Positions 28,962 to 57,586 of a DNA stretch of 64,000 bases are shown one piece after another (the stretch's first letter is position 1; each line of letters starts with the position of its first letter). Under the pieces are notes generated by a model, which was given only the letters and a program-made list of their open reading frames with translations, was not told where the DNA came from and did not search any database. This DNA is from a bacterium (GTDB lineage: Bacteria; Patescibacteriota; Patescibacteriia; UBA9570), in NCBI GenBank assembly GCA_030698395.1, contig JAUYKW010000018.1, positions 44,726 through 108,725 of the forward strand, in the 5' to 3' direction. Position numbers and translations under genes: made by a program.

Positions 28962-30827
28962 ATGAATAAAAAAAAATATCAAGCTAAATTTGATGCTTTC
29001 ATAAAAAGGCATCCATTATTGTTACCAGTTATTGTTTCAGTTTTATGTGGATTGGTGTTATTAATTATTGCATTAAAATCTAGTGGTTCAGATTGGTTTT
29101 TTTCGGAGGTGTTAGCGGAGACAATCTATTCAGCAATTGTCTATCATCATGAGTTTCCATTTTTTTCTTACTTTCTAAATGGTGGAACACCTTTTATTCA
29201 AGATCCACAAGGGCCATTATTATCTATTAGTACGTTATGGATTTTGATATTTGGGCCTTGGGGTGGCTTAAGATTTGCCGCATTTTTTTGGGGATTTATC
29301 GGTACCTTTTCCTGCTGGGGGTGGCTAAGACCTAAATTAGGAAGTGGGCCAGCGTTAGTTTCTGCTACTGCCTGGATTTTGAGCATGGGTTTCTTTTGGC
29401 GTTTAGTAGTTGGTCACGATATGTTCTTGTGGCACTTAGCATTACCATTATTTTTAATAGTTATTGAAAAGTTAATATTTAAACCAACATGGAAGAATAG
29501 TATATTACTTGGATTGCTAACTGGATTATTTATCCTCGGACCATCATTACATTCACTTTTATATTTTATTATCCCAGCTGTAGTAATCTGGTACGTGGTG
29601 TTGTTGGTTGGTAATCACAAAAGAATAGCTATTAAGAATATATTTCTATTTTCAGCAATGGCTATTGTTATAGCATTAGCAATTGCATCACCAAAAGTTG
29701 CTGCATGGTCACGGCTAGATATGGTGAGAGAGACACAGAGTGAAAGTGCAATGTATTTAAAGGATGCTTTAATATCAATTGTTGACACTCAAGTTAGATC
29801 TGATCGTGGGTATTTGCTGGACGAGAAGTATGAGCGGGAAAGTTGGGGTATTTGGGAAAGTAATGTTGCCGCAACACCAATAATTCTTACATTAGCAATA
29901 TTAGCGCTTTTCATAGTAGCTTTCAAAAAAGAAAAACCAAATAGTTTGTTCATTTTTTCTATTACACTGTTTTTTGTAGGATTATTTATTGCGACAAACT
30001 CTTGGTTTTGGCAAGTATTTAGAGAATTATCGAATGGTAGTTTTAGGGTATCAGGCAGATTTTTAGGATTAGCTAATTTTTCAATAATTATCTTAGCGGG
30101 TATCGCAACAAAGTATTTGACAGGAATTGTCTCAAAAAAAATTCCTCATTTATCTGCAATTTTTATATTATCAACATTTGTTTTTAGTGCATTACTGATC
30201 TATCAAGCGAGCGTGACATTATCACCATATGTAAGTTCTGGAGGTAATATCCTTAAGCCAATCACAGCTATCTGGAATCATTCAAAAAAGAAAACTGACT
30301 CACCCATGTTAACAGGAGTAAATCATTATTATTATGATCAGGAGATAGAAGCAAATCAAATTAGTTCTGGTAACCTATATTTATTATATGGTCATAAAAT
30401 AATTGGAGATTCTGTTTCTGAAATACCTCTTGATGATTTTATGAAGATATTACCGAATAAAGATATAGAAATTCCAGTCTCACCAGAATTATCACCAGAT
30501 CGTTTAGAAGTATTTCATACTAAATTAGTGATTAGTAATTTACAGCCATTGGAAGAAGTAAACATCAGATTAAAGGTTGCACCATTAGGACAGGAAATTA
30601 TCACAGAACCTAGCGGGGCTAATATCACATTAGAGGAAAATGCAGGCACAATGACATTAATTAATAATGAGAATTACTTAATAGAAAAAATTACGATAAA
30701 ACCAAAGTCTCCTGTACCAGTAATAGCATGGATAGTGTCAATATTAACGTTAATAGCCTCTATAGGCTATCTAGTGGCCAAATCTGGAATTAGTGCTAGA
30801 ATAAGGTTTCAAAAAAATAAGGCATAA
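28962..30827 (+). CDS. Hypothetical polytopic membrane protein, possible GT-C-fold glycosyltransferase
   Basis: 621 aa. At least ten hydrophobic helices in the N-terminal two thirds and a soluble C-terminal region. Sits directly upstream of a Dpm1-like GT2. Confidence 0.35.
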   Translation: MNKKKYQAKFDAFIKRHPLLLPVIVSVLCGLVLLIIALKSSGSDWFFSEVLAETIYSAIVYHHEFPFFSYFLNGGTPFIQDPQGPLLSISTLWILIFGPWGGLRFAAFFWGFIGTFSCWGWLRPKLGSGPALVSATAWILSMGFFWRLVVGHDMFLWHLALPLFLIVIEKLIFKPTWKNSILLGLLTGLFILGPSLHSLLYFIIPAVVIWYVVLLVGNHKRIAIKNIFLFSAMAIVIALAIASPKVAAWSRLDMVRETQSESAMYLKDALISIVDTQVRSDRGYLLDEKYERESWGIWESNVAATPIILTLAILALFIVAFKKEKPNSLFIFSITLFFVGLFIATNSWFWQVFRELSNGSFRVSGRFLGLANFSIIILAGIATKYLTGIVSKKIPHLSAIFILSTFVFSALLIYQASVTLSPYVSSGGNILKPITAIWNHSKKKTDSPMLTGVNHYYYDQEIEANQISSGNLYLLYGHKIIGDSVSEIPLDDFMKILPNKDIEIPVSPELSPDRLEVFHTKLVISNLQPLEEVNIRLKVAPLGQEIITEPSGANITLEENAGTMTLINNENYLIEKITIKPKSPVPVIAWIVSILTLIASIGYLVAKSGISARIRFQKNKA

Positions 30828-30830
30828 TCT

Positions 30831-31592
30831 ATGGATATAAAAGTATCAGTAATACTTCCAACTTATAATGAAAAGGATAATATTGGAGATTTAGTATTGG
30901 CCATTGATAAGGAAGTTCAAGCTAGTAAAGAAATTATTGTGGTTGACGACGATTCTCCAGATGGGACGTCTCAAATAATTCAAAAGATGATCGATCAGCA
31001 TCAGGTGCTTAATTTAAGATTGATTACAAGAAAACAAGATAAGGGATTAACCAATAGTATTTGGGAAGGAATTCAGCAAGCACATGGTGAGATTGTGCTA
31101 TGGATGGATTGTGATTTTTCAATGCCTCCAAAAGATATACCTCGTTTATTAAAGAAAATTGATGAAGGTAATGATGTTGCAGTTGGTTCTCGTTTTGTGA
31201 AGGGTGGAAGCTTTAAAGAAGATACGTCAGATTCAGAAGATTCTTGGTTGGCAGTTGTGCTTAGTAGATTGATGAATGTATTTATTCGCATGATGTTAGG
31301 TAGAGATTTTAAGGATTATACGAGTGGTTTTATTGCTATTAAACGAAGCATCTTTGATAAGATAACTCTTACTGGAGATTATGGAGAATATTTTATAGAT
31401 TTGATTGTGCGAGCTAAATTATTCAATTTTAAAATTATTGAAATTCCATATACATGCTTACCCCGTGAAAAAGGTGAGTCTAAGACTGGTAGTAATTTAT
31501 CTGATTATATTAAGCGTGGCAGTAAATACGTTTGGGTGACTTTAAAGCTTTTTAAATTAAGGATGAAGTATAAGTTTTTTAGAATTGTGTAG
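30831..31592 (+). CDS. Glycosyltransferase family 2, polyprenyl-phosphate sugar synthase (Dpm1/GtrB-like)
   Basis: VSVILPTYNEKDNI, VVDDDSPDGT, WMDCDFSMPP (DxD). Confidence 0.8.
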   Translation: MDIKVSVILPTYNEKDNIGDLVLAIDKEVQASKEIIVVDDDSPDGTSQIIQKMIDQHQVLNLRLITRKQDKGLTNSIWEGIQQAHGEIVLWMDCDFSMPPKDIPRLLKKIDEGNDVAVGSRFVKGGSFKEDTSDSEDSWLAVVLSRLMNVFIRMMLGRDFKDYTSGFIAIKRSIFDKITLTGDYGEYFIDLIVRAKLFNFKIIEIPYTCLPREKGESKTGSNLSDYIKRGSKYVWVTLKLFKLRMKYKFFRIV

Positions 31593-32181
31593 GACTATGG
31601 TTTTACCATTAAAAAAAGAAAGTATTTCAAAAGTAGTAGATCTTCATAAGCAAGTATTGGGACACACTCTAAACGCTAGAATAGGTTCATGGTTTTTAGA
31701 GAAATTATATGAAGAGACTATGCTAGCAAAAGAAAATGGTAGGTGCTTTGTCTCGTTTGAGGATGAAAAAGTTGTTGGCTTTGTTAGTATTTGTTTAGAT
31801 TATGAAGCTCTCAGTTCACGAATTATGAGTTCATTAACATTGGTACAAAAAATTAAGGTAAGCATTTTTATGGGAAGTCATTTTTGGTTAATACCAGATT
31901 TTTTCAAGAAGCAATTGTTCTCTAGATACATAAAAGCAAATATGCCACAGCCATATCCTATGGTATTAACAATTGGTGTAGATTCTAACCAACAGGGTAA
32001 TGGGATTGGTAAACAATTGATGCATGAGGTAAAAACTAGCTTTCGTAAGCATAATTTAACAGAATTTTATCTAGATACAGAAGAAACAAACGAACAGGCT
32101 ATCGGATTTTATAAGAAAATTGGTTTTGATGAGATTGCCAGGAAATACGGCAACGTAGTTTTGCAATATAAATTGAACTGA
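31585..32181 (+). CDS. GNAT-family N-acetyltransferase
   Basis: Motif A QQGNGIGKQLMHEV. Length 198 aa. Confidence 0.55.
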   Translation: MCRTMVLPLKKESISKVVDLHKQVLGHTLNARIGSWFLEKLYEETMLAKENGRCFVSFEDEKVVGFVSICLDYEALSSRIMSSLTLVQKIKVSIFMGSHFWLIPDFFKKQLFSRYIKANMPQPYPMVLTIGVDSNQQGNGIGKQLMHEVKTSFRKHNLTEFYLDTEETNEQAIGFYKKIGFDEIARKYGNVVLQYKLN

Positions 32182-33440
32182 TGAGCATTGGTAAGAGAGA
32201 AATTAAAAAGGAGCATCTTCCGATTATAGTATTGGTTGCATTTAGTATCTTGGTGCAGTTAGCAATCTTGCCAAATTTTGGTTCTTTAGATACTAATGCA
32301 TTTATTAGAGTTGTTGATACAGTGGAGGCTTTTGGATTAAAACAAGGGTATGCAATTTATAATTTAGTGTATCCGCCACTAAGCTCCATCTTTGCATATG
32401 GTATTCATTTGATAATTCCGCTTTATTCTTTTATGCCTAAGCATCTACAGGTATTGGCTATAAAAGTGGGTTTGGCAATATTTCATTATGGTTTCCTAGC
32501 TTGTATATTATTGTTTCATAGAAAAAATAAAAAGTTATCTTGGTTCGCAGCAACAAAAGAAACAATTCCTATTTTATTGAACATTGCATTGATTGAGTCT
32601 ACGTTTATTATAGGATCATTTGATATTCTTTTGGCCATTCCGTTATTTTTTGCTTTTTATTTTGTATATAAGAAAAAGTTTTTTTGGTCTGGTTTTTTTC
32701 TCGCCACCGCTTTTTGTACTAAATTATTGCCGATTCTTTTAATTCCAGCTTTTTTAGTTTTCTTTTCATCGAAATTGTCGAAGGAAAAAATTACCCTTAA
32801 TTGGAGAGCGGTAAATTTATTTTTTCTGGGTATGTTAGTTGTAGTTGTACCTTTAGTGGCGTATTTTGGTTATCCGGAGATTAGAGAAATATTTGTAAAA
32901 TCATCAGTTCATAGTGATAAGTTGTCAGCGGCTTTTAATTTTAATAGAATAGTTCGTGAATTATTTATGCCGGAGAATATAACTACGCCGGCTATTTACT
33001 ATTTTGGTCGAGGAGTATTCTTTCTAACCTCAGCATTTTTACTAATAAGATTATGGATGAGTCCAAAGAATATTCAAAATCTACTATATACTAGCATTGG
33101 AATAATCATAACTTATTTTACTTTTCTTGCTGGCGTGCATCAGAATCATATTTTTCCGGCACTAATCTTTGCTATCCTCTTGGTGATGTATAACAAAAAT
33201 AGCATAAATATGTTTATTTATTATTCTATCACTGCAATAGCCTTTATAAATTGGTTCGCACCTTATGGGTTTGGATATTTTGAAACTGTTGAATATACCG
33301 GAATTAGATATTTGTGGCAGCTTCCAGTTACTACCATTGGTTTGATATATGCTTTGTTAAGCTTGCTTACTGTTTTCTTTTTTGGGGGATATATGTGGTT
33401 GGTGTTACGACCAAAATTCTTCAGGCAGACTGAGAAATAA
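32181..33440 (+). CDS. Hypothetical polytopic membrane protein (possible GT-C / DUF2029-like glycosyltransferase)
   Basis: 419 aa, hydrophobic throughout, within the glycan gene cluster. Confidence 0.35.
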   Translation: MSIGKREIKKEHLPIIVLVAFSILVQLAILPNFGSLDTNAFIRVVDTVEAFGLKQGYAIYNLVYPPLSSIFAYGIHLIIPLYSFMPKHLQVLAIKVGLAIFHYGFLACILLFHRKNKKLSWFAATKETIPILLNIALIESTFIIGSFDILLAIPLFFAFYFVYKKKFFWSGFFLATAFCTKLLPILLIPAFLVFFSSKLSKEKITLNWRAVNLFFLGMLVVVVPLVAYFGYPEIREIFVKSSVHSDKLSAAFNFNRIVRELFMPENITTPAIYYFGRGVFFLTSAFLLIRLWMSPKNIQNLLYTSIGIIITYFTFLAGVHQNHIFPALIFAILLVMYNKNSINMFIYYSITAIAFINWFAPYGFGYFETVEYTGIRYLWQLPVTTIGLIYALLSLLTVFFFGGYMWLVLRPKFFRQTEK

Positions 33441-34530
33441 GTTTCATTTGTTCACAAACATAATCAATCTGTTCATCTGTGATTGCTAGACCAGAAGGTA
33501 AATATAGGCCATGTTTTGCTATGTAATCCGTGTTGGGGTAGGATCCAATATCCCCGTAAGTATTTATTAGTACTGGCTGATCTGTTGGCGAGTAAAAGAA
33601 ATCTCTAGTATCAATATCTACTTCTTTTAGCTGTGTTCGGACTTCGTCTTTAGTTTTGCCAAATTCCTCTTCAATTAAAATTGCATACATCCAAAAAACA
33701 TTTTTATTTTTCGGAAGTGTGGTTGGCAACTTAATACCTGGAATATCTTTTAGTACGCTATTATACCTTTCTGCCATCTGATTCTTCTTTTCAATATATT
33801 CATCAATATGCTGAAGTTCCCCGCATCCTATTGCAGCTTGCATATTAGTCATTCTATAGTTATAGCCAACGTGTTCATGGATGAATCTTGTATCAGAGTG
33901 ATAGAGATCTTTTAATTTTCTAGCTTTTTCAGCAATTGCATCGTCATTTGTTACTACCATACCGCCTTCTCCAGTAGTGATTATTTTATTTCCATAAAAA
34001 CTAAAACATGCAATGTCGGACATGCTTCCACAAATTCTTCCTTTGTAGGTTGCACCATGAGCTTCAGCAGCATCTTCAATTACGATCAAATTATGTTTCT
34101 GGGCAATTTCTAATATTGGATCCATATCGCAGGAATGGCCATAGATATGAACGGGCATTATTGCTTTGGTATTTTTGGTAATTTTTTCTTCAAGTTTAGC
34201 TGGATCTAAATTATATGTTTCTAATTCACAATCTACAAAAACTGGTTTAGCCCCAGTGTACATTACTGCAAATATTGTTGCGATCATTGTAAACGCAGGT
34301 ACGATTACTTCATCTCCAGGTCCAATATTCATTGTGAGTAAGGCAGTGTGTAATGCTGTTGTTCCATTATTTGTAGTAATGGCGTGCTTAACACCAAGAT
34401 AAGATGCGAACTTGTTTTCGAATTCTTCTACAAATTTTCCAGCAGATGAGATCCAACCTGTTTCTACTGCTTCTAATATATTTTTTTTTGCTTCTTCTGA
34501 TATCAGCGGTTCATTAACGGGTACACGCAT
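33421..34530 (-). CDS. DegT/DnrJ/EryC1/StrS-family PLP-dependent sugar aminotransferase
   Basis: N-terminal PVNEPLISEEAKKNILEAVETGWIS. SxxxK-type PLP region (FSFYGNKIITTGEGG). Length 369 aa. Confidence 0.85.
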   Translation of the reverse strand: MRVPVNEPLISEEAKKNILEAVETGWISSAGKFVEEFENKFASYLGVKHAITTNNGTTALHTALLTMNIGPGDEVIVPAFTMIATIFAVMYTGAKPVFVDCELETYNLDPAKLEEKITKNTKAIMPVHIYGHSCDMDPILEIAQKHNLIVIEDAAEAHGATYKGRICGSMSDIACFSFYGNKIITTGEGGMVVTNDDAIAEKARKLKDLYHSDTRFIHEHVGYNYRMTNMQAAIGCGELQHIDEYIEKKNQMAERYNSVLKDIPGIKLPTTLPKNKNVFWMYAILIEEEFGKTKDEVRTQLKEVDIDTRDFFYSPTDQPVLINTYGDIGSYPNTDYIAKHGLYLPSGLAITDEQIDYVCEQMKLISQSA

Positions 34531-34533
34531 ATA

Positions 34534-34950
34534 TTAATCCATAAATATTTTAGCTTTCTTATCTCCAGGATATGGGCCTTGTTTGATTTCAATGATTCTA
34601 CATTTACTTAACATTTTAAATGAATGACCGCCAGCAACGAATAGTGCAAAATCTCCTTTATTTAGTTTAACTTTTTTTAGTACGGTCCAATCATTGCGGT
34701 AAATAGTAGCTTCAACACTGCCCTTTTCAATGTAGAGAAATTCTTGAGTAGTGGATACATTGTATTTTAAGCTTGGATGTCGATGAGGTTTTACTTTGTG
34801 ACCTTTAGGATGTTCTAATAGACCAACTTGAAGCGGGTAATTTTGTGGAGTTAAAAAACGCACTCCATCAGCCTTCATGTCTGCGGAATAAATTAAGGCG
34901 TAGACTTTTTTCCCCTCTGTAATTTCGTTTACTGCTTTCATTTGATGCAA
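34534..34950 (-). CDS. Cupin-fold WxcM/FdtA-like protein (putative NDP-sugar 3,4-ketoisomerase)
   Basis: 138 aa small beta-barrel with HPKGHKVKPHRHP His-rich metal or sugar-binding stretch, directly downstream of the DegT aminotransferase. Confidence 0.45.
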   Translation of the reverse strand: MHQMKAVNEITEGKKVYALIYSADMKADGVRFLTPQNYPLQVGLLEHPKGHKVKPHRHPSLKYNVSTTQEFLYIEKGSVEATIYRNDWTVLKKVKLNKGDFALFVAGGHSFKMLSKCRIIEIKQGPYPGDKKAKIFMD

Positions 34951-35073
34951 GTATTAATTGAAAATCAGATTATATTATAGGTTCAAAGTACGGGGGAGTC
35001 AATTATTGAAGAATTTCATTATCATTGTTTTTTTTAACCTTTGTCTATATAATAAAGCCTCATTGAAATAATT

Positions 35074-35496
35074 ATGAAACAGTTTATTAGTCAGTTTGTA
35101 AAATTTTGTATTACGGGAACAATCAATGCTGGCATTGATTTCTTAGTATATTTAGGGTTAACGCGCTACTTTGATTTTTGGGAAAATCGTTTAGTCATGG
35201 CCACCGGAGTTGCGTTTGTGATAGCAAATATCAATAGTTATATCATGAATAAATACTGGACATTTCGAGATCCTAACGGTAGGCACAAAATACAATATCC
35301 AAAATTCTTTGCAGTTTCATTGGTTGGTTTAGCAATAAACTTAGCTGTCTTTTATTATCTAGTTCATGTATTAATGATAGACGACATTCTTAGCAAGGTA
35401 ATAGTTGCAGCAATTGTATTAGTATGGAATTTTTTCGCGAATAAATTTTGGACTTTTATTAAGCCAAAAAAAGATTTATTGGAATCTAAAAGTTAA
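35074..35496 (+). CDS. GtrA-family membrane protein (polysaccharide biosynthesis / flippase accessory)
   Basis: 140 aa, four TM, N-terminus FVKFCITGTINAGIDFLVYLGL typical of GtrA-like proteins. Confidence 0.75.
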   Translation: MKQFISQFVKFCITGTINAGIDFLVYLGLTRYFDFWENRLVMATGVAFVIANINSYIMNKYWTFRDPNGRHKIQYPKFFAVSLVGLAINLAVFYYLVHVLMIDDILSKVIVAAIVLVWNFFANKFWTFIKPKKDLLESKS

Positions 35497-37550: not shown

Positions 37551-37582
37551 ATTAAATTTTTATCCATTACTTCCATATTCTA

Positions 37583-41710: not shown

Positions 41711-41711
41711 T

Positions 41712-46554: not shown

Positions 46555-46586
46555 TAGAAGCAGGCTTTATTATATAAAAAAGTCTA

Positions 46587-47450: not shown

Positions 47451-47462
47451 AATTGATACAAT

Positions 47463-48635: not shown

Positions 48636-48721
48636 AAATTGCCTACTATTTTCATTGTAGCTTTGTGTATGGTAACAGAACAATGATATGAGGACAATAT
48701 CATGGATACATTATCATTGCC

Positions 48722-49573: not shown

Positions 49574-49575
49574 TT

Positions 49576-50316: not shown

Positions 50317-50319
50317 AGC

Positions 50320-51570
50320 ATGAAAGTTGCACAGTTGAGTACAATGGATATCAAAGGAGGTGGCGGTTCTATGGCCGCCTATCGCTTGCATACTGCTTTG
50401 CGTGCTAACAATGTAGATTCTTCACTATTGGTAAAATTCAAATATAGTGATGATAAAAATGTAATCGGTAAACATCCGACTAACGAGTTAGTAAGAAAAA
50501 TTAGTTCGTTCAGTTCATTTATGGATGAAATTCCTGGTAAATTTTCTAACTCGCCTGATACGGTGTATCGTTCGAGTGCATGGTATCCGGATGGTGTGGC
50601 ACGAAAGTTAAAAGAGTTGAATCCTGACGTAATAAATCTACATTGGATTAATGGTGGCTTTGTGCGATTGGAATCTCTTGCTAAGTGGCAAGGGTCAATT
50701 GTATGGACGATGCATGATATGTGGGCATTTTGTGGCACAGAGCATTACACTAGTGATCAACGTTATCAAGAGGGATATTTAAAAACAAATCGACCAGCTG
50801 GAGAATCTGGATTTGATGTAAATCGTTGGACGTGGCAACGAAAACAAAAGGCATGGTCTACACTAACTGATCTAGTTGTAGTAACACCTAGTAAGTGGTT
50901 AGCAAGTTGTGTTCGAAAAAGTGTATTGTTCAAGAATTATCGAATTGAAGTAATTCCAAATAGTGTTAACCAAGAAATTTTTAAACCACAAGAAAAGATT
51001 GTGTTACGAAAGAAACATAATATAAATCCACAGAGTAAACTTATTTTGTTTGGCGCTGGAAATACTGCTAGTCCAAGAAAGGGAGTGGATTTACTAAAAA
51101 AAGCATTAAAAAAATTAAGTGTTAATGCTACACATAATTATATTGAGTTAGTAGTTTTTGGTAAGTATCAGCCAGAGGATTACAGTGATATTAATTTACC
51201 AATTAAGCATTTAGGTCATGTTGCTGGAGAGTCTGAGATTGCAGAAATATATTCTATGGCCGATGTATTTGTTGCTCCGTCCCGCCAAGATAATCTACCA
51301 AATACAATTGTAGAGGCTTTAGCTTGTGGAACACCATGTGTGGCATTTAATATTGGCGGCATGCCAGATATGATTGATCATCAAAATAATGGGTATTTAG
51401 CTAAAGCATTTGATGTGGATGAATTAGCTGCTGGAATTGTTTGGGTATTGGAAGATAAAGAACGATGGCAGAAGCTTTCTAGTCAATCTAGAATTAAGGC
51501 TGAAAATAATTATACATATTCAGAGCAAGCAAAAAAATATAGTGAACTTTATCAAAGCATCACTGTTTAA
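50320..51570 (+). CDS. Glycosyltransferase family 4
   Basis: MKVAQLSTMDIKGGGGSMAAYRLHTAL N-terminus. C-terminal SRQDNLPNTIVEALACGTPCVAFNIGGMPDMI. Confidence 0.8.
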   Translation: MKVAQLSTMDIKGGGGSMAAYRLHTALRANNVDSSLLVKFKYSDDKNVIGKHPTNELVRKISSFSSFMDEIPGKFSNSPDTVYRSSAWYPDGVARKLKELNPDVINLHWINGGFVRLESLAKWQGSIVWTMHDMWAFCGTEHYTSDQRYQEGYLKTNRPAGESGFDVNRWTWQRKQKAWSTLTDLVVVTPSKWLASCVRKSVLFKNYRIEVIPNSVNQEIFKPQEKIVLRKKHNINPQSKLILFGAGNTASPRKGVDLLKKALKKLSVNATHNYIELVVFGKYQPEDYSDINLPIKHLGHVAGESEIAEIYSMADVFVAPSRQDNLPNTIVEALACGTPCVAFNIGGMPDMIDHQNNGYLAKAFDVDELAAGIVWVLEDKERWQKLSSQSRIKAENNYTYSEQAKKYSELYQSITV

Positions 51571-51582
51571 GGAGTTGTCTTT

Positions 51583-52479
51583 TTATTGACCTGCCTTATA
51601 TATAGCGTATCGATCAGCTAACCAATTTTGGGGAGATTGTTTTTTTGGTTGGAGTTTAGCTAGCTCGGATAAGATAGATTCAATATTATATCCAAGGAGG
51701 GATAATTTTTCTGAGTCTAATGAACGTAGATATTTTTTTGCGTACTGTATACGTAAATTTGTATTGAATGTAGTTTTCCATTTTTCTAATGACTTATTCT
51801 GTACCTGTTTTTCTTTAGCTATATAGGGATCTCCCATGGTGCCATGAAGTTTTTCTTTTTGAATATTTTGGATCATATTTGAATTGAATGGTATTTCTAG
51901 ATAGTTACAAATCTTCTCTGTAACTTCGCTTGATTTTTCTACTAACTCTTCATATTTAATTAATATACTTTTTTCTTTCAGCAATTCATATCCATCACTC
52001 AGGAGATGTGGACCTTCATACAGATCTGTATTTGAAGGTTTTACATTTAATTTACCAAAGTTCCATGTTTCAATCACTGAAGCTAATGTTGCCAAAGGAT
52101 TTCTGCCTAAAAAAATAAATTTTGCCTCAGGAAATAATTTTGCTATTTCTGGAATAATAAAATAGTAACGAGGAGTTTTATCAAGAAAATATTTTTCATT
52201 GTCACAAGCTGAACTATATATGTCAGTGACAAATTCTTTTAATGACTTATCATAAGAAAACATTTTTTTTGGAAGTTCTGAAAAAAAATCTTGTAGCGCT
52301 TGACGACAAACTTCCTTATCGTAATCTACTGTTAGATCATTTTGTTTTTTTGGATATAGGAGTGGTAACAATATCCATGGTTCAGATACAGAACAAATTT
52401 CTGGATGAGACATTAATATTTTCTGCAGTAAAGTTGAACCAGAACGAGGTGTGGAAAAGAGGAAGATTAAATTATCCAT
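51583..52479 (-). CDS. Sulfotransferase (Sulfotransfer_3-like, PAPS-dependent)
   Basis: N-terminal IFLFSTPRSGSTLLQKILMSHPEI (5'-PSB P-loop) and FIFLGRNPLATLASV (3'-PB-like). Length 298 aa. Confidence 0.75.
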   Translation of the reverse strand: MDNLIFLFSTPRSGSTLLQKILMSHPEICSVSEPWILLPLLYPKKQNDLTVDYDKEVCRQALQDFFSELPKKMFSYDKSLKEFVTDIYSSACDNEKYFLDKTPRYYFIIPEIAKLFPEAKFIFLGRNPLATLASVIETWNFGKLNVKPSNTDLYEGPHLLSDGYELLKEKSILIKYEELVEKSSEVTEKICNYLEIPFNSNMIQNIQKEKLHGTMGDPYIAKEKQVQNKSLEKWKTTFNTNLRIQYAKKYLRSLDSEKLSLLGYNIESILSELAKLQPKKQSPQNWLADRYAIYKAGQ

Positions 52480-53491
52480 TTTTTCTAATTAATTTGCTAT
52501 AAGCTAGAGCTAACATATCTTGAAGTTGAGTTTTTTTACAAGAAATTATTCTTCGACGTAAATCATTTGGTATTACTTGCTGAATATCATCTTGCTCATT
52601 TAATTCTTGTATTTCAGCAACATAATCTTTATTTTTTTCGTAGAGTATATCAGCGTATTCTGTTCTATCAGATAGCTTTGGATTATTATGTTCCTCAGGC
52701 CACTTTAAAAGTTGTTCTTGCAATTTAAAATAAAGTTTAACTTTTTCACTAGTTCGTAAACCATTAGTCCCAATTGGATGCCATGGGTGTGCCGTGTATG
52801 TGTCTGTAAGTACAGCTCCTTTGCTGTTAGCGGCCATTTCCAATCTGATACTGACATCTTCTCCAATTTTGGATAGAGAAGTACTCCAAAGAGGATTAGT
52901 GTCATATCCTTCTATTATATCCCAATACTTTCTTGCCGCGGATATCATTGGTCCAAAATTTCGGCGGGGTGGAAATAATTCAGGTTGTCTATATTTTGTT
53001 GGGCAAGTTGCTAGCACAGATGCTAGATCGTTGTTAGCATTTTGCCATTCCTTAAAGGATGCCCCAGCTGGGTATTGAGCCATTCTACGAAACGCATTAA
53101 ATACTTTGTACTTTCCTTGTTGATGATGCTTTGTTAGCACAGTTAGAAAGTCTTTAGGTAGAAGTTGATCTCCATCCATTACTGAAATTATATCGCCTTG
53201 AGATGCCGCTATGCCAGCATTATTACATTTTGATAAGTGATAAGCTTCAGTATTAACATTCTCGTCCAAATAAATTATCTTGATATTCATTTGGTCTTTA
53301 ACTTCTTTATGGCGATCGAACAGCGATTTTAATCCCTTTTTGTGATTATACTTATCGGCAAATTCACGGCTTCTTTGTTCAACATAAATAAGTTCAAAAT
53401 TATTCCTAGGGAAATCTTGATTTAGTAGACCATTAATTAGATGAAAAAAATTACGATAACTCGAGTCCCAACTAATGATAGAGTGTAACAT
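52472..53491 (-). CDS. Glycosyltransferase family 2-like protein
   Basis: LINGLLNQDFPRNNFELIYVEQ, GDIISVMDGDQLL (DxD). Confidence 0.5.
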   Translation of the reverse strand: MLHSIISWDSSYRNFFHLINGLLNQDFPRNNFELIYVEQRSREFADKYNHKKGLKSLFDRHKEVKDQMNIKIIYLDENVNTEAYHLSKCNNAGIAASQGDIISVMDGDQLLPKDFLTVLTKHHQQGKYKVFNAFRRMAQYPAGASFKEWQNANNDLASVLATCPTKYRQPELFPPRRNFGPMISAARKYWDIIEGYDTNPLWSTSLSKIGEDVSIRLEMAANSKGAVLTDTYTAHPWHPIGTNGLRTSEKVKLYFKLQEQLLKWPEEHNNPKLSDRTEYADILYEKNKDYVAEIQELNEQDDIQQVIPNDLRRRIISCKKTQLQDMLALAYSKLIRKNG

Positions 53492-53495
53492 ATAG

Positions 53496-54467
53496 TTATT
53501 TTATATCAGTCAACCAAGCTCTTACAAGTTTGATTTCGTCGTTGGATACAAATCCATTTTTATGAAGAGCAGTGTAAACAATTTCTAAGTTTTTCAATAA
53601 ATCTTTACCTAGTTTTATATTTTGAAGTAATTCAATGATTGGTTTAGTGTTTTGATATACTTCAACTTCATCAGCAAAATCTTTCATTAAGTTGTGAGCA
53701 TTTCTTTCTTGGTAAACAGTTGCCTCAGTAAAACCTAAATGCATGCCATGTAGCCACATAATATGTTGTGCCAGATAACCTCTTAGAATATCAGTAAATC
53801 TAAAACTAACAGTTGCGGGGAGATATAATAATGGAAATGCTTTTTTTTGCCAGAAAGTATTTTGCGAATTAAACGGACAGTAACACTTTTTTGGTAAATG
53901 AATACTTTTTTTTCGATCGAATTTGGTAGTGTCGTTAAAGACTAAGCGATAAATGGCATCAACATCTGGATCTGTATCAGCTAAACCTTGCCATGCTCCA
54001 ATACTAGTTAATTTAGAATGTTGTTTTAACTTGCTCTTATTTTTTGTTTGAATGAGGTCTAACGGGTATCCTCGTGGCCAAATTAATTTCTTTGAAAAGT
54101 AATTGTATACATTATAATATTTGTCTTTTGTCTCTATACTTCTTTTGCTAGTAAAATCTGGACACTTCCAATGTTTGTATGGCAGATTGTCGTCATCTGT
54201 ATCATAGATAATATCTGCTCCTTGACGCATTGCATAAATATACCCGATGTTTTTTCTAGTATAGTGGTTATAAGGACTGTAGCGAACAAATTCGTAGCCT
54301 AGTTTTTTTTGATCTTGAACTGAAAGGAAGGTTAAGTTTTTTGAACTTTTAATTTGTGGAGTTTTTTTATCTCCAACAAGAACAACGTGCCAATCTGGAA
54401 TTTTTTCAAAAGCTTTTACCGCTTTAGTTCTGTCGTTAATGCTAGTTATGACTATGAATTTTTTCAT
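53496..54467 (-). CDS. Hypothetical protein, possible GT-A-fold glycosyltransferase
   Basis: N-terminal Rossmann-like KKFIVITSIND and DTDDDN (DxD-like). 323 aa. No confident family assignment. Confidence 0.3.
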   Translation of the reverse strand: MKKFIVITSINDRTKAVKAFEKIPDWHVVLVGDKKTPQIKSSKNLTFLSVQDQKKLGYEFVRYSPYNHYTRKNIGYIYAMRQGADIIYDTDDDNLPYKHWKCPDFTSKRSIETKDKYYNVYNYFSKKLIWPRGYPLDLIQTKNKSKLKQHSKLTSIGAWQGLADTDPDVDAIYRLVFNDTTKFDRKKSIHLPKKCYCPFNSQNTFWQKKAFPLLYLPATVSFRFTDILRGYLAQHIMWLHGMHLGFTEATVYQERNAHNLMKDFADEVEVYQNTKPIIELLQNIKLGKDLLKNLEIVYTALHKNGFVSNDEIKLVRAWLTDIK

Positions 54468-55675
54468 GATAGTTGCGTAATTTTATAATCAGTTGGAGGA
54501 CAAGATCCTAAGACATCTCTGCGCGACACAATAAAAGGATCAATTACACTAGTTGGTTGCATTTCAAAGAATAATAATTGTGGACGGTAAAAAATTCCTG
54601 TATCAAGCAGTCCCAGCCCTAAGCTAATGCTGTAATTTCCGGGTGGAAGATTTGTATCTTCAGCAGAAATTTCAAGTTTATGTTTTCCTTTAGGAATGGC
54701 ATCTATTTTTGCTGTAACTGTCATGATGCGTGCTAACTGACTGTTAAATATTTGGATACCAACTCTAATATTATTGAGTTCTTTATCGGTGTTATTAGTT
54801 ACTAGCAACTCTGTAATCAGAGGCTTGCTGTACTGCATTTGGGACAATCTAATTTGTTCAATAGTAAAGTTTTTGATTTTTGTATCAAACGGACCAGTTC
54901 CTGATTCTTGAGAATTTGTCAGGCGTAGATATTCTTGAACAGCTTTGTCTGTATCTGCGATCGTTACAATTTTTCCTTGATTCAGCACAACGCATGATTT
55001 ACATAAGCTTTGAATTGCTCCCATATTGTGGCTAACAAAAATGATAGTGCGACCATCTTCTTTTGTTACTTCATCCATTTTGCCAAGGCACTTTTTTTGA
55101 AACTGGGTATCACCAACAGCTAGTACTTCATCTACTAAAAGAATCTCTGGTTCTAGATGGGCAGCTACAGCAAATGCTAAACGCACGCGCATCCCACTAG
55201 AATATCTTTTTACTGGGGTGTCTAAGAATTTTTCTACTTCTGCGAATTCAACAATTTCATCAAACTTTTTTGAGATTTCTCTTTTTGTCATGCCCAATAC
55301 AGCTCCATTTAGAAATACATTTTCTCGGCCAGTTAATTCTGGATGAAATCCAGTGCCAACTTCCAATAAGCTAGCAACTCTGCCACGTAAAGTTATTTTA
55401 CCAGTGGTTGGTGATGTGATGCGGGACAATACTTTTAATAGGGTACTTTTACCAGCTCCGTTACTACCGATTAATCCTATTACTTCACCTTTCTCTATAG
55501 AAAAATTTATATCTTTAAGTGCCCAGAATGTTTCTCGATGGGATTCTTTGTTTGTGAACCATTTTTTTGGATTTAAAGATTTAGCAATTACATCACGTAA
55601 AGCTACATAGGGTTCCATTTCCCCTAGTTGATATTGTTTTGAAATATTTTCAGCTAGAATTACAGGTTTGGACAT
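54464..55675 (-). CDS. O-antigen/teichoic-acid-type ABC exporter ATP-binding protein (Wzt/TagH-like) with a C-terminal extension of about 150 aa (putative glycan-binding domain)
   Basis: Walker A GSNGAGKSTLLKVL. Signature YSSGMRVRLAFA. Walker B ILLVDEVLAVGD. Extra C-terminal domain beyond the NBD. Confidence 0.8.
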   Translation of the reverse strand: MSKPVILAENISKQYQLGEMEPYVALRDVIAKSLNPKKWFTNKESHRETFWALKDINFSIEKGEVIGLIGSNGAGKSTLLKVLSRITSPTTGKITLRGRVASLLEVGTGFHPELTGRENVFLNGAVLGMTKREISKKFDEIVEFAEVEKFLDTPVKRYSSGMRVRLAFAVAAHLEPEILLVDEVLAVGDTQFQKKCLGKMDEVTKEDGRTIIFVSHNMGAIQSLCKSCVVLNQGKIVTIADTDKAVQEYLRLTNSQESGTGPFDTKIKNFTIEQIRLSQMQYSKPLITELLVTNNTDKELNNIRVGIQIFNSQLARIMTVTAKIDAIPKGKHKLEISAEDTNLPPGNYSISLGLGLLDTGIFYRPQLLFFEMQPTSVIDPFIVSRRDVLGSCPPTDYKITQLS

Positions 55676-55679
55676 AATT

Positions 55680-56501
55680 TTATACTACATCTGCGAACTT
55701 TTGTTCGGTTTTACGGAAATAAAATAAGCCTACAATAAATAACAATATTGAAATACCTATAGACATGGCTAGACTTTCTAGATTAATTGGCGTATTTCCA
55801 ATAATGATGGCACGAGCGTTTTCAATTACACCAGACATTGGATTAAGATTTAGAATCCATTGGTATTTCTCGCCAGCAATTTTTGCGGGATAAATTACGG
55901 GTGTTAAAAAAAGTAGCATTTGAATAAAAAACGGAATAATATATCGGACATCACGATATTTTACATTTACTGCTGATAGAAATAATCCCATACCTAAACT
56001 AGTGAAGTAGGTAATGAGAATCAATATTGGAATAAGAAATAGACTAATTGGTTTAGGGACGAATTGATAATAAAACATCATGGCACAGAGGATGGAGCTG
56101 GCAATTAAGAAATCAATAAAAGCAACAATTACTGTTGATGATGGTAATATTAATCTTGGAAAATAGATTTTTTTGATCATCTCTTGATCAGATACTAAGC
56201 TACCGCTAGCACTTGATAGTGCTTGTGAGAAAAAGAGCCAGAAAACTAAACCAACATAAACAAATATTGGATATGGAGCACCGCTAGAATCTATTTGAGC
56301 TAGGTTTCCAAAAAAGACTGTAAAAATTACCATACTTATGATAGGTACAAAAAAAGCCCACAATATTCCAATGGCTGTTTGTTTGTATCTTACTTTTACA
56401 TCTCTAAGTGCAAGAAAGTAAAAGAGATCTTTATATTGGAGCATTTCCCGGAAGTCTATCCGTAGCCAGCTACGTTTTGGTAGGATAATTGTTTCTTTCA
56501 T
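55680..56501 (-). CDS. ABC-2 type polysaccharide exporter permease (Wzm/TagG-like)
   Basis: 273 aa, six TM, directly upstream of and co-oriented with the Wzt-like ATPase. Confidence 0.75.
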   Translation of the reverse strand: MKETIILPKRSWLRIDFREMLQYKDLFYFLALRDVKVRYKQTAIGILWAFFVPIISMVIFTVFFGNLAQIDSSGAPYPIFVYVGLVFWLFFSQALSSASGSLVSDQEMIKKIYFPRLILPSSTVIVAFIDFLIASSILCAMMFYYQFVPKPISLFLIPILILITYFTSLGMGLFLSAVNVKYRDVRYIIPFFIQMLLFLTPVIYPAKIAGEKYQWILNLNPMSGVIENARAIIIGNTPINLESLAMSIGISILLFIVGLFYFRKTEQKFADVV

Positions 56502-56575
56502 TTACGAAGAATATTTATAATTGAGCAGGCATACTCTACTATTTTTAAGGGTATAAGTCAACAAGTTTTATTAGT

Positions 56576-57586
56576 CTATGCTTTTTCCAGAAATACAATA
56601 AAGCTCTCTCCTTTGCCGGCTTTATCGCGTATCCGCCATGCTGGAATGGTGAAGTAACTATTCAATAATGCTAGAACTCTCAAACTGAATTCTTTGAAAC
56701 TTAAGTATTTAATATATTCTAATGTATTCATGTTCTTAGGACGCGGTTGCCAGATGGTTTCTTTGTTTCCCAGTGATACTCGTTCTTTTTTATTGGTAAG
56801 ATATTGTAATGCAACCCAACCCATTGGAGTGGTAGTTTCGGATTTAAGAACTTTGAATCCAGTTTCTTTAGCCAGAACATTTATACTTTTTTGTGAAAAA
56901 AAATTTACGTGATATGGAATGTGCCAGTTAATCCATTTTTTTTCGGTTCGCTTTGCATTTGCACTTTCTATATTTGGTGTACTAAGAATTATTTTACCAC
57001 CAACCTTTAATTTTTTTGATATTTTGATTAAAAAATCTTTAGGATCAGGTATATGTTCTATTAACTGACTCATTGTGATGAAATCAAAGAAATCATCAGG
57101 GTAAGGCATTGTGTCTATGTCGCCAAAATGTATTTCTAAATTTAGTTCGTCTGCAATTGGTTTTATATTTTTATCTAGTTCTGTTCCGTATGCATCACCA
57201 CCAAGTTTAGTAATTTCTAAAAGAGATACTCCGTTTCCGCAACCTATATCCAAAACTTTGCTACCAGCAGTTATATAACTATGACATTTATTTTTTTCTC
57301 CTTGTAGATTGTTTTTGTCGCTATTTGGTTTTCTAGAGAAATTATCAGCAGTTGCTTTTACATCATCAGCAGTCATTGCTTTTCTGGGATAATAATCTGT
57401 ATAAATACTTTCTAATACTTCACTAGATGGAATTGGGTTAATTTCAGCAAAGTTACATGATGAACATTTATTCACTGAGTATTGTTCAGGGTATCCATAA
57501 CGATCATCATGCATTTCATTGTACAGGAGTGTCGTCGGAGATTTGCATATTTTGCAGTATAATACTGCATTTTCTTCACTTAGCAT
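56576..57586 (-). CDS. Class I SAM-dependent methyltransferase with an N-terminal Cys4 zinc-ribbon-like segment
   Basis: CKICKSPT...CSSCNF. Motif I VLDIGCGNGVSL, post-II GKIILSTPN. Length 336 aa. Confidence 0.7.
   Translation of the reverse strand: MLSEENAVLYCKICKSPTTLLYNEMHDDRYGYPEQYSVNKCSSCNFAEINPIPSSEVLESIYTDYYPRKAMTADDVKATADNFSRKPNSDKNNLQGEKNKCHSYITAGSKVLDIGCGNGVSLLEITKLGGDAYGTELDKNIKPIADELNLEIHFGDIDTMPYPDDFFDFITMSQLIEHIPDPKDFLIKISKKLKVGGKIILSTPNIESANAKRTEKKWINWHIPYHVNFFSQKSINVLAKETGFKVLKSETTTPMGWVALQYLTNKKERVSLGNKETIWQPRPKNMNTLEYIKYLSFKEFSLRVLALLNSYFTIPAWRIRDKAGKGESFIVFLEKA

Follow-up and report, generated by a model that had tools for sequence, protein, structure and literature searches.

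In Vibrio cholerae O1 a GDP-derived 4-amino-4,6-dideoxy sugar is built into a homopolymer that leaves by an ABC exporter, and the FkbM-related methyltransferase RfbT/WbeT places a methyl group on O-2 of its terminal sugar; this methyl group sets the serotype, and we know of no requirement for it in export. A separate, polyprenyl-phosphate-sugar route of glycosylation is typified by mycobacterial PpgS (Rv3631), Rv3632 and Rv3779 and by the GtrABC-type three-component systems. The general scheme of such systems has been described (PMC11127046). In Escherichia coli O9a/O8, the cytoplasmic terminator WbdD puts a small group on the non-reducing end of the chain, and this group is read by the carbohydrate-binding domain (CBD) of the transporter component Wzt (2R5O; PMC3482155). 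The WbbB-Wzt systems of Klebsiella pneumoniae O12 and Raoultella terrigena (5HNO/5HNP) use an anionic cap; in this case a glycosyltransferase domain attaches a sugar, beta-Kdo. In Aquifex aeolicus (7K2T, 8DKU, 6O14, 8DKY), the cap bound by the CBD is 3-O-methyl-mannose or -rhamnose, and the CBD is required to export capped chains and passes the chain to the Wzm/Wzt channel; the caps read by the Wzt CBDs solved to date are all methyl, methyl-phosphate or Kdo (PMC9445017). Sulfotransferases have been encountered in two related settings. In the ABC-dependent O-antigen cluster of Aeromonas salmonicida A450, a diderm with LPS, a sulfotransferase-domain ORF directly follows the gene for a long Wzt (438 aa), with no sulfate being reported in the O-antigen (PMC4483657). 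In Nod-factor tailoring by Rhizobium sp. NGR234, NoeE sulfates 2-O-methylfucose (PMC5080398), its substrate being a lipo-chitooligosaccharide signal and not a polymer.

The 64 kb stretch of DNA analysed here (the window) contains about 27 kb of genes (Table 1) which, in our judgement, probably specify a fucose-containing surface glycan exported by an ABC transporter in a probable member of the Patescibacteria (CPR). All the ORFs named in an earlier note on this DNA are present at the coordinates it gives and match the Pfam and NCBIfam families given there, and its proposal of an ABC-dependent glycan cluster with GDP-L-fucose genes is supported by the family matches of Gmd, Fcl, Wzm and Wzt. 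The same note described a single block of about 28 kb; the glycan genes are indeed there, but the span is not uninterrupted. Since the ORF at 35497..36636 encodes a conserved RNA-type methyltransferase and not a glycan enzyme, the glycan genes form two blocks, A (28962..35496) and B (36612..57586), in a variable region. Four relatives (L012, L020, L022 and L032) have homologues of this methyltransferase (33-38% identity) immediately upstream of rpsF-ssb-rpsR-efp and encoded on the other strand; the gene marks the ancestral junction between the blocks. The cluster has a GC content of 31-34%, lower than that of the adjoining upstream stretch (20 to 30 kb), where it is 36-39%.

Table 1. Genes of the two glycan blocks and the methyltransferase between them
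Coordinates	Strand	Assignment	Basis and remarks
28962..30827	+	Polytopic membrane protein, 621 aa, extracytoplasmic C-terminal part; candidate GT-C	~12 predicted TM segments; no Pfam or NCBIfam match, even at E<=5; first gene of block A
30831..31592	+	GT2 glycosyltransferase	PF00535, E 4.3e-33
31585..32181	+	GNAT N-acetyltransferase	PF00583, E 4.3e-17
32181..33440	+	GT87-like polytopic (GT-C) glycosyltransferase, ~9 TM segments	PF09594, 43.1 bits vs GA 25
33421..34530	-	DegT/DnrJ/EryC1 sugar aminotransferase	PF01041, E 1.5e-128; top NCBIfam match LegC (acts on GDP-sugar), 360.7 bits, below 420 cut-off
34534..34950	-	WbuC-like cupin, putative sugar-modification role	TIGR04366, 33.5 bits, below cut-off 42
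35074..35496	+	GtrA-family small membrane protein (lipid-linked sugar translocation component)	PF04138, E 5.2e-28
35497..36636	-	RNA-type methyltransferase, UPF0020/TIGR01177-type (Trm11/Trm14-like)	Pfam and NCBIfam; outside the pathway
36612..37550	-	GalE-like NAD-dependent sugar epimerase/dehydratase	PF01370, E 2.5e-59; TIGR01179 (GalE) 200.6 bits, below 262 cut-off
37815..39383	-	Polytopic membrane protein, 522 aa, soluble C-terminal part; candidate GT-C	~11 predicted TM segments; no family match in Pfam or NCBIfam
39644..40306	+	PpgS/AglJ-like GT2 polyprenyl-phosphate-sugar synthase	PF00535; NCBIfam PpgS 117.7 and AglJ 107 bits, both below cut-off
40291..40650	+	DUF2304 small membrane partner of PpgS-like GT2	PF10066, 55.5 bits
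40661..41710	+	Gmd	GDP_Man_Dehyd, E 3.5e-154
41712..42641	+	Fcl	NCBIfam GDP-L-fucose synthase equivalog, 511.7 bits vs cut-off 500
42644..43414	+	GT2, cytoplasmic	Pfam
43415..44578	+	GT4, cytoplasmic	Pfam
44575..46554	-	Polytopic protein, 659 aa	No Pfam match; weak NCBIfam 'cell surface glycopolymer formation protein'
46587..47450	-	GT2	Pfam
47463..48683	-	GT4 glycosyltransferase	PF00534, E 1e-28
48785..49573	+	Sulfotransferase 1 (ST1), Sulfotransfer_2 family	PF03567, 35.6 bits vs GA 22; longest ORF 48722..49573
49576..50316	+	FkbM-family SAM methyltransferase	PF05050, 53.3 bits; TIGR01444, 64 bits
50320..51570	+	GT4 glycosyltransferase	PF00534, E 2.3e-30
51583..52479	-	Sulfotransferase 2 (ST2), Sulfotransfer_3/_1	PF13469, 108.6 bits; last in exporter operon
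52472..53491	-	GT2-like protein	Pfam, weak
53496..54467	-	STELLO-like glycosyltransferase	Pfam; directly downstream of Wzt
54464..55675	-	Wzt, 403 aa	NBD ~residues 1-250, C-terminal CBD residues 251-403 (by modelling)
55680..56501	-	Wzm ABC-2 permease, 6 TM segments	PF01061, 68 bits; NCBIfam galactan and KpsM permease matches, both below cut-off
56576..57586	-	Class I SAM methyltransferase, Methyltransf_23 (MT23)	PF13489, E 7.8e-25; first gene of exporter operon

The exporter genes lie in a minus-strand operon of the order MT23-Wzm-Wzt-STELLO-GT2-ST2, in which a first gap of 74 nt is followed by overlaps of 4-8 nt or 4-nt gaps. The closest described relative of the Wzt, in both sequence and structure, is that of A. 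aeolicus: the full-length protein is the top PDB sequence match (E 1.1e-68, aligned to residue 354), and the two proteins match in length (403 and 404 aa, respectively) and in combining an NBD with a C-terminal jelly-roll CBD. The C-terminal extension of about 150 aa had been recognised in the earlier note. As the Pfam Wzt_C score for it is below threshold (21.9 bits, GA 30.4), we assigned the domain by structure, which supports what the profile did not. A CBD-only AlphaFold model (pLDDT 90.5) retrieves all three solved Wzt CBDs as its best Foldseek matches, with those of A. aeolicus leading (6O14 and 8DKY; TM 0.61-0.64, rmsd 2.6 A), followed by 5HNO (E 9e-5) and 2R5O (E 3e-4). This confident model indicates that residues 251-403 adopt a genuine Wzt-type CBD fold and are not a degenerate linker. 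However, the CBDs of the window and of A. aeolicus are only ~19% identical, and in a hand alignment the residue equivalent to the cap-binding His350 appears unconserved, so that the ligand is not transferable from the A. aeolicus structure. Furthermore, A. aeolicus is a diderm that exports a rhamnan/mannan carried by its LPS, whereas the genes here indicate fucose, an amino sugar and sulfotransferases in a host that probably lacks an outer membrane. We know of no LPS pathway in Patescibacteria.

The candidate terminators also differ from the described ones. WbdD is a large protein that joins kinase and methyltransferase activities to a coiled-coil ruler, whereas the candidates here are small single-domain enzymes of 246-336 aa in which Pfam finds no kinase domain. 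In contrast to the WbbB systems, the window contains neither a Kdo transferase gene nor a CMP-Kdo gene. The two SAM methyltransferases proposed earlier, one of the FkbM family and one of class I with a zinc ribbon, were confirmed through PF05050, PF13489 and the N-terminal CxxC...CxxC motif of MT23. The former is a candidate O-methyltransferase acting on the terminal sugar. Its counterpart adjoining Wzt in a Patescibacteria relative (L090) additionally matches PF05575 (V_cholerae_RfbT), whereas the window's FkbM protein matches PF05050 only. MT23 is 32% identical to proteins encoded near Wzm/Wzt in two further loci (L107 and L116).

Both sulfotransferases score above their Pfam thresholds and keep their PAPS-binding motifs, in line with the earlier assignment to two different families. 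In ST1, H-I-R-K-T-G-G-T-S and R-D-P-x2-R-x2-S are 85-100% conserved across 120 homologues, and searching the PDB with the family profile brings up heparan sulfate 2-O-sulfotransferase (E 0.003); in ST2, P-R-S-G-S-T and R-N-P...S are 84-100% conserved, and its closest PDB relatives are the CurM sulfotransferase and tyrosylprotein sulfotransferases. The ST1 protein probably starts at Met22 (48785), giving 262 aa, as in the NCBI (MDP3970733.1, sulfotransferase family 2) and Logan gene calls; the best promoter-like match overlies the TTG at 48722, with promoter matches there overall being not above chance. ST1 lies in a plus-strand unit, ST1-FkbM-GT4, and these 2-3 nt gaps between ORFs are the basis on which we regard the GT4 (50320..51570) as co-transcribed with ST1 and FkbM; homologues of the GT4 adjoin those of ST1 in 11 of 36 metagenome loci. 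The sole NCBIfam match of ST2 is NoeE, but at 84 bits it is far below the 500-bit cut-off, and ST2 was rejected as a NoeE orthologue because the similarity is this remote. The statement that glycan sulfation is rare in bacteria proved exaggerated at the gene level, with 408 homologues of ST1 and 3685 of ST2, commonly within polysaccharide or glycosylation clusters and several of them adjoining Wzm/Wzt.

On the side of precursor supply, Gmd and Fcl, both clear assignments, are predicted to convert GDP-mannose to GDP-L-fucose, and the GNAT enzyme of block A probably acetylates an amino sugar made by the DegT aminotransferase. The PpgS-like GT2 overlaps its DUF2304 partner by 16 nt, and together with GtrA and GT-C enzymes acting outside the membrane the pair resembles the PpgS/GtrABC systems. 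However, its PpgS and AglJ matches fall short of the equivalog cut-offs, and of the four polytopic proteins only the GT87-like one falls into a described family, the other three having 10-13 predicted TM segments each. One of these three, the 659-aa protein, represents a family with only 42 representatives among 1.84 billion; its most distant member has a weak PMT_2 (GT-C) match. In another member, P0377, the N-terminal part is a GT2 with 38% identity (E 2e-57) to the GT2 at 46587..47450; from this fused form the neighbouring GT2 and polytopic protein appear to be a functional pair.

Parts of this arrangement recur elsewhere. One locus (L089) has the order Wzm-Wzt-STELLO-x-FkbM-sulfotransferase-GT10 fucosyltransferase...MT23, its STELLO-like protein being 56% identical to that of the window and in the same position; another (L088) has Wzm-Wzt-x-DUF268-GT11 fucosyltransferase. 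In the Patescibacteria relative (L090/L092) the order is Wzm-Wzt-RfbT-like FkbM-MT-GT4-MT23...FkbM-GT4-ST1 homologue-GT2-GNAT-GT87-DegT-cupin, all contiguous on one 19 kb contig and, except for DegT and the cupin, on one strand. Identities to block A, with which it has the order GT2-GNAT-GT87-DegT in common, are 70% for the GT2 (which there adjoins the sulfotransferase gene), 47% for GNAT, 55% for GT87, 75% for DegT and 72% for the cupin; those to block B are 53% for ST1, 40% for the GT4, 51% for MT23, 59% for Wzm and 53% for Wzt. Because this relative carries both sets contiguously, blocks A and B probably act together.

The best overall explanation, to which we give a probability of about 0.6, is an ABC-exported glycan that is end-modified in the cytoplasm and whose cap is bound by the Wzt CBD. 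GDP-L-fucose would come from Gmd and Fcl, and an N-acetylated amino-deoxy sugar probably from the DegT aminotransferase, GNAT and cupin. The five GT2 (one of them a weak match) and three GT4 enzymes would assemble the chain on polyprenyl-phosphate at the cytoplasmic face. There it would be modified by FkbM and MT23, using SAM, and by the two sulfotransferases, using PAPS, and one or more of these changes to the sugar at the non-reducing end would stop elongation and act as the cap, which is most likely an O-methyl group, perhaps on a fucose that is also sulfated. The dimeric CBD would bind this cap and feed the chain into the Wzm/Wzt channel. By analogy, side-chain sugars may then be added outside the membrane by GT87 and up to three of the unclassified polytopic enzymes, from polyprenyl-phosphate sugars made by the PpgS-like/DUF2304 pair and handled by GtrA, before the finished glycan would be linked to an acceptor, which could be a lipid anchor, peptidoglycan, an S-layer protein or a pilus protein. 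We favour this pathway because of the family assignments, the operon structure, the CBD fold, the conserved PAPS motifs and the recurrence in L088, L089 and L090, to which are added six of 36 metagenome loci (of at least 8 kb) with an ST1 homologue at 2-5 kb from Wzm/Wzt, because profile searches of the window with Pfam and NCBIfam found no Wzx, recognisable Wzy or synthase-type exporter, and because NoeE offers a precedent for the predicted chemistry, in which fucose carries an O-methyl group as well as an O-sulfate from a PAPS enzyme. Against it stand the sub-threshold Wzt_C match, the His350 position and the remoteness of NoeE, as well as the housekeeping gene that divides the glycan genes and the unrelated cargo of their region in relatives, with part of the genes perhaps serving a separate pathway; the 64 kb window also has no initiating phosphoglycosyl transferase, ligase, LCP enzyme, PAPS-synthesis gene or member of a known fucosyltransferase family such as GT10 or GT11, and in 30 of the 36 loci with ST1 homologues no close Wzt was seen.

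A possible but less probable variant keeps the export scheme and has the sulfotransferases, perhaps along with one methyltransferase, decorate only internal repeat residues to give an anionic polymer, the cap being simply an O-methylated sugar, like those of A. aeolicus, E. coli O8 and V. cholerae O1 Ogawa. The nature of the known caps and the Aeromonas O-antigen fit this variant, as do the FkbM/RfbT-like genes next to Wzt in L086 and at the Wzt end of L090, where no sulfotransferase adjoins them, and the ST2 homologues, which lie mostly in Wzx/Wzy-type clusters where a cap is unnecessary. However, translation of ST2 is coupled to that of the Wzm-Wzt operon, and a sulfotransferase again lies within a few genes of the closely related Wzm-Wzt-STELLO module of L089. 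We consider it unlikely that the plastic region instead holds at least two independent systems, namely an ABC-exported polymer (~42644..57586) and a lipid-carrier/GT-C system (GtrA, PpgS-like/DUF2304, GT87 and the polytopic proteins) serving, for example, protein or lipoglycan glycosylation. The conserved housekeeping methyltransferase splits the span, the equivalent intervals in relatives carry genes for type IV pili, for restriction-modification or for a reverse transcriptase, and all four polytopic proteins are mutually unrelated; the contiguity of block A and B genes in L090/L092 argues otherwise.

Genomes of the CPR are metabolically reduced, and the sulfotransferase genes could be horizontally acquired passengers, idle in a host that cannot make PAPS, with the glycan being methylated and unsulfated. 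In the 64 kb window, profile searches with Pfam and NCBIfam found no sat, cysDN, cysC or cysQ, while a Deferribacter cluster has PAPS-synthesis genes beside its sulfotransferase, and the nearest non-self relatives of ST1 and ST2 (52-57% identity) come from unrelated phyla or metagenome contigs. Nevertheless, both ORFs are intact with all PAPS-binding motif residues conserved, each sits in a tight operon, and a second Patescibacteria MAG retains the ST1 orthologue in the same context, which argues for selection; we regard idle genes as improbable. On the capped-export reading the polymer is predicted to be methylated and sulfated in the cytoplasm and then exported by the ABC transporter, making this locus a further example of a known export scheme and not a new kind of system.

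The ORF map drawn in an earlier note for a glycan cluster at 28962..57586 was reproduced exactly, with each assignment backed by Pfam and NCBIfam. The exporter of this cluster comprises an ABC-2 type permease, Wzm (PF01061), adjoining a Wzt/TagH-type ATPase, Wzt (PF00005), with TagH and galactan Wzt as the top NCBIfam matches of the latter. The nucleotide-binding domain (NBD) of Wzt is 42% identical to 6M96 over the Foldseek alignment (TMt 0.85). The Pfam Wzt_C profile (PF14524) matches residues 291-373 with a score of 21.9 bits (E 1.8e-4), under its GA of 30.4, and a precomputed match to the same profile is present in most Wzt homologues at about 50% identity. A phmmer search of the PDB with the isolated C-terminal 147 residues recovered no significant match; the relationship of this region to the carbohydrate-binding domains (CBDs) of other Wzt proteins is visible only from full-length alignment and structure comparison. 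Full-length Wzt aligned best with full-length Aquifex aeolicus Wzt (E 1.1e-68), the alignment reaching well into the binding domain, and its AlphaFold model (pLDDT 88) can be superposed on complete Aquifex chains across 384-391 columns. When residues 251-403 were modelled alone (pLDDT 90.5, pTM 0.85), the best PDB matches were the Aquifex Wzt CBD structures 6O14 (TM 0.61-0.64, rmsd 2.6 A) and 8DKY, which has 3-O-methyl-mannose bound, followed by the Kdo-cap domain 5HNO and then the Escherichia coli O9a domain 2R5O; the top 11 Foldseek matches are all Wzt CBDs (6O14, 8DKY, 8DL0, 7K2T and 5HNO). The last strand of the model (residues 395-401) is detached behind a low-confidence linker, an arrangement compatible with C-terminal strand exchange in a dimer.

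Since both the full-length alignment and the predicted fold match solved Wzt CBDs, the extension is a genuine Wzt-type CBD, a jelly-roll beta-sandwich following the NBD. The C-terminal extension proposed in the earlier note is thus a real domain, and a degenerate linker is ruled out by the CBD fold and the pLDDT above 90. The Aquifex CBD binds chains at their methylated end, and capped chains need it for loading (PMC9445017). However, the window domain is just about 19% identical to it in sequence and, in a hand alignment, the cap-binding histidine of Aquifex Wzt is seemingly not kept; hence, the ligand of the window CBD is not readable from the Aquifex structure. A second ABC-2 permease/ATPase pair in the window is devoid of a C-terminal binding domain and adjoins murD, glutamate racemase, iPGM and phosphomannomutase-family genes. 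Its ATPase shows about 27% identity, and no more, to the Wzt locus on L001, and the substrate of the pair could be another polymer or a drug.

The two sulfotransferases claimed for the cluster, of the Sulfotransfer_2 and Sulfotransfer_3/_1 families, were recovered with HMM matches above threshold and intact PAPS motifs. ST1 matches Sulfotransfer_2 with 35.6 bits (GA 22) and ST2 matches Sulfotransfer_3/_1 with 108.6 bits (GA 27). The motifs for the 5'-phosphosulfate and 3'-phosphate of PAPS are H-I-R-K-T-G-G-T-S and R-D-P-x2-R-x2-S in ST1, and P-R-S-G-S-T and R-N-P...S in ST2, and their residues show 84-100% conservation across 120 homologues of each protein. In searches against the PDB, the ST1 family profile retrieves heparan sulfate 2-O-sulfotransferase, and ST2 retrieves the CurM sulfotransferase and tyrosylprotein sulfotransferases. 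The only NCBIfam match of ST2 is NoeE, at 84 bits, far under the 500-bit cut-off. As the substrate sulfated by NoeE is 2-O-methylfucose on Nod factors (PMC5080398), we treat this match as a possible lead on chemistry and make no claim of orthology. The true start of ST1 (NCBI protein MDP3970733.1) is most likely Met22, giving the length found in independent gene calls. The NCBI contig that carries this gene is 112,874 bp long and also encodes MDP3970739.1. A scan for promoters and terminators was not above chance overall; its best sigma-70-like match in 44000..58000 (TTGTCA-17-TATAAT, 11/12) lies over the TTG start codon of the longest ST1 ORF, which fits a start at Met22. No gene for PAPS supply (ATP sulfurylase and APS kinase) was found in the 64-kb window.

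Features of the window and of comparison loci (L-numbers) from other genomes
Sequence	Coordinates	Strand	Length (aa)	Feature
Window	1671..5656	-	470 and 828	Two large ORFs
Window	5836..6987	+	383	ORF with TTG start
Window	6001..8000			Stretch of 44% G+C
Window	18331..19985	-	278 and 270	Second ABC-2 permease/ATPase pair
Window	22894..24258	-	454	Protein with short central repeats
Window	24930..26534	+		Elp3-like protein (radical SAM, Radical_SAM_C, GNAT)
Window	28962..35496			Glycan block A
Window	35497..36636	-		UPF0020/TIGR01177 RNA methyltransferase (Trm11/Trm14-like)
Window	36612..57586			Glycan block B
Window	44575..47450	-		659-aa polytopic protein with its neighbouring GT2
Window	46587..47450	-		GT2 of this pair
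Window	48722..48750	+		Sigma-70-like match
Window	48785..49573	+	262	ST1, Sulfotransfer_2 sulfotransferase
Window	49576..50316	+	246	FkbM methyltransferase
Window	51583..52479	-		ST2, Sulfotransfer_3/_1 sulfotransferase
Window	53496..54467	-		STELLO-like glycosyltransferase
Window	54464..55675	-	403	Wzt ATPase; CBD, residues 251-403
Window	55680..56501	-		Wzm, ABC-2 permease
Window	56576..57586	-	336	MT23, Methyltransf_23 methyltransferase
Window	57817..58470	+	217	Ribosomal protein S6; S6 domain, residues 4-93
L012	11072..17673			Type IV pilus genes PilM, PilO, T2SSF, T2SSE
L032	11062..16638			Reverse transcriptase and PGA_cap protein
L020	11576..17532			Two DNA methylases and Eco47II-type endonuclease (restriction-modification)
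L003 (Flexistipes sinusarabici, CP002858.1)	10001..17306			Three Sulfotransfer_1/_3 genes with GT2 genes in between

The genes for MT23, Wzm, Wzt, the STELLO-like glycosyltransferase, a GT2-like enzyme and ST2 are co-oriented, with a 74-nt gap and thereafter overlaps of 4-8 nt or gaps of 4 nt, and ST1, FkbM and a GT4 enzyme form a convergent unit; this arrangement in operons links the modifying enzymes with export. In contrast to a WbdD-type terminator, both methyltransferases are single-domain proteins, MT23 with an N-terminal CxxC...CxxC motif, and Pfam detects no kinase domain. Both enzymes of the GDP-L-fucose pathway are encoded in the cluster, namely Gmd (Pfam E 3.5e-154) and Fcl (511.7 bits, above the 500-bit NCBI equivalog cut-off), alongside five GT2, three GT4 and one GT87-type polytopic glycosyltransferase. 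Pfam detected no fucosyltransferase of the GT10, GT11 or similar families within the 64-kb window, whereas related loci do have GT10 or GT11; because no such dedicated family is present, fucose transfer here would have to fall to a GT2 or GT4 enzyme. Likewise, no window ORF matches PF00953 or PF02397, the profiles for initiating phosphoglycosyl transferases of the WecA/TagO or WbaP type, and the gene for this enzyme may lie elsewhere, as it does in many ABC-dependent systems.

The cluster also encodes all component types of a three-component GtrA/polyprenyl-phosphate-sugar GT2/GT-C set: a GtrA protein (PF04138, 98 bits), a GT2 resembling PpgS and AglJ together with its DUF2304 partner, and the GT87 protein, which scores above GA; we infer that GtrA, the PpgS/AglJ-like GT2 and GT87 work together. 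Three more polytopic proteins of 522-659 aa with 10-13 predicted membrane spans have no Pfam match even at E<=5 and nothing useful in NCBIfam, and comparison with each other revealed no paralogy; the 64-kb window, where these three remain without a class, contains no match to the profiles used to look for a Wzx flippase or Wzy polymerase (Polysacc_synt, MurJ and Wzy_C). The family of the 659-aa member is very small, with 42 representatives in a library of 1.84 billion proteins, and an all-against-library search found no named family for it. In one homologue, P0377, the polytopic region and a GT2 make up a single fusion protein; this GT2 shares 38% identity with the window neighbour of the 659-aa protein, and the two window proteins are therefore a functional pair. 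Two other members, P0364 and P0371, carry N-terminal extensions of 320-430 aa that have no Pfam match.

The earlier note treated the cluster as a single unit; it instead proved to be an island-like region of two blocks, A and B, split by a housekeeping gene. This gene encodes an RNA methyltransferase whose start overlaps the 3' end of a GalE-like gene by 25 nt. Four related MAGs (L012, L020, L022 and L032) have its homologue on the opposite strand to rpsF-ssb-rpsR-efp and immediately upstream of these genes, and a role as a glycan methyltransferase is ruled out because relatives without the cluster keep this position next to rpsF. In relatives the corresponding intervals between ychF, the RNA methyltransferase gene and rpsF hold unrelated cargo, such as pilus or restriction-modification genes. 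From these gene orders the ychF-rpsF region looks like a plastic one, a hot spot for variable genes. The G+C content of the cluster is 31-34%, versus 36-39% immediately upstream, between 20 and 30 kb. The YchF protein encoded just left of the cluster has no match above 58% identity among the 185,579 species genomes of GTDB, its best matches being mostly from Patescibacteria/Parcubacteria MAGs; the species is therefore absent from that set. The homologues of blocks A and B are contiguous on one 19 kb contig of another Patescibacteria MAG (GCA_043814725.1; L090/L092), and this contiguity speaks for a single pathway that uses both blocks. On this contig every cluster homologue except DegT and cupin is on one strand, and identities to the window are 59% for Wzm, 53% for Wzt, 51% for MT23, 40% for GT4 and 53% for ST1 (block B), and 70% for GT2, 47% for GNAT, 55% for GT87, 75% for DegT and 72% for cupin (block A).

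Several other features of the window came to light. The Elp3-like protein recurs at 46-48% identity, in the equivalent position upstream of SHMT and YchF, in L008 and L032. The 454-aa protein has no family match; a signal or anchor at its N-terminus is followed by a centre of short 'G-D-L/N-V-x-I-N' type repeats that appear beta-helix-like and, at the C-terminus, by about five membrane spans in a bundle, and a weak homologue (25% identity) occurs in the equivalent neighbourhood of L032. In ribosomal protein S6 the S6 domain is followed by a tail about 120 residues long, acidic and of low complexity, in which E, V, P and T abound. No match emerged when the window was scanned for Rfam families and tRNAs. 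The stretch of 44% G+C, in surroundings of about 35%, likewise has no rRNA, tRNA or Rfam match; several overlapping ORFs occur there on both strands, the 383-aa ORF has no Pfam match, and the stretch may be foreign DNA. The two large ORFs at the left end have no Pfam match at E<=5, and the 470-aa one gave coiled-coil-like noise only.

The claim that glycan sulfation is rare in bacteria was overstated. At the thresholds used we recovered 3685 homologues of ST2 and 408 of ST1, the nearest non-self relatives being about 45-57% identical, and the inspected ST2 relatives, from Deferribacter, Flexistipes and Maribellus, are encoded in clusters for polysaccharides or protein glycosylation; in Deferribacter, cysC, cysD, cysN and cysQ adjoin the sulfotransferase gene. 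Given these counts and recurring contexts, sulfotransferases in bacterial glycan clusters are not rare: they are common passengers, and several lie beside Wzm/Wzt. ST1 homologues occur 2-5 kb from Wzm/Wzt in 6 of the 36 metagenome loci that span 8 kb or more (scored for a close Wzt within 10 kb), a fraction that rules out an ST1 family specific to ABC-dependent clusters. The Wzt relatives with the most similar CBDs neighbour FkbM methyltransferases, fucosyltransferases (GT10 and GT11) and, in L089, also a sulfotransferase; this locus shares the Wzm-Wzt-STELLO order of the window, with a STELLO protein 56% identical. In the O-antigen cluster of Aeromonas salmonicida an unexplained sulfotransferase-domain gene lies right behind wzt (PMC4483657). 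Full-text literature searches found no characterised sulfotransferase neighbouring a Wzt, no relevant paper linking a sulfotransferase with Patescibacteria and nothing usable on the Candidate Phyla Radiation (CPR) and PAPS. Genes for an STT3/PglB-type oligosaccharyltransferase and for an initiating enzyme of the Bac_transf type follow directly downstream of the three sulfotransferase genes of Flexistipes sinusarabici, in what looks like a predicted sulfated N-glycosylation cluster.

The established capped-chain scheme is the most economical reading of the cluster, and we assign this overall scheme a probability of about 0.6. The glycan would be assembled in the cytoplasm on a lipid carrier, a terminal modification of the chain would end elongation, and the Wzt CBD would recognise the modified end, with export following. 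Because SAM and PAPS are cytoplasmic, methylation and sulfation would have to precede export. In a second stage outside the membrane, GtrA, the PpgS-like GT2/DUF2304, GT87 and the other polytopic proteins would add lipid-linked sugars. The earlier interpretation was reasonable in outline, its shortcomings being the supposed rarity of sulfation and the treatment of two blocks as one. Within the capped-chain scheme, it is rather unlikely that the cap read by this CBD subfamily is a sulfate ester, alone or on O-methyl-fucose. If it were, sulfate would join methyl, methyl-phosphate and Kdo as the fourth chemical class among export signals, and a CPR episymbiont would possess a sulfated, glycosaminoglycan-like surface polymer with its length set by a sulfotransferase.

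The cluster is probably a further case of ABC-transporter-dependent, cap-recognising glycan export, in a lineage whose polymers of this kind are unstudied. It offers compact reagents, namely a 153-residue CBD, two small sulfotransferases and two methyltransferases, for asking whether sulfate can signal export or termination, and the locus yields the testable prediction of an ABC-exported, O-methylated, O-sulfated, fucose-containing polymer. The surface glycans of CPR bacteria are essentially uncharacterised; because CPR bacteria live on the hosts to which they attach, the polymers at their very surface probably play a part in attachment and in phage recognition.
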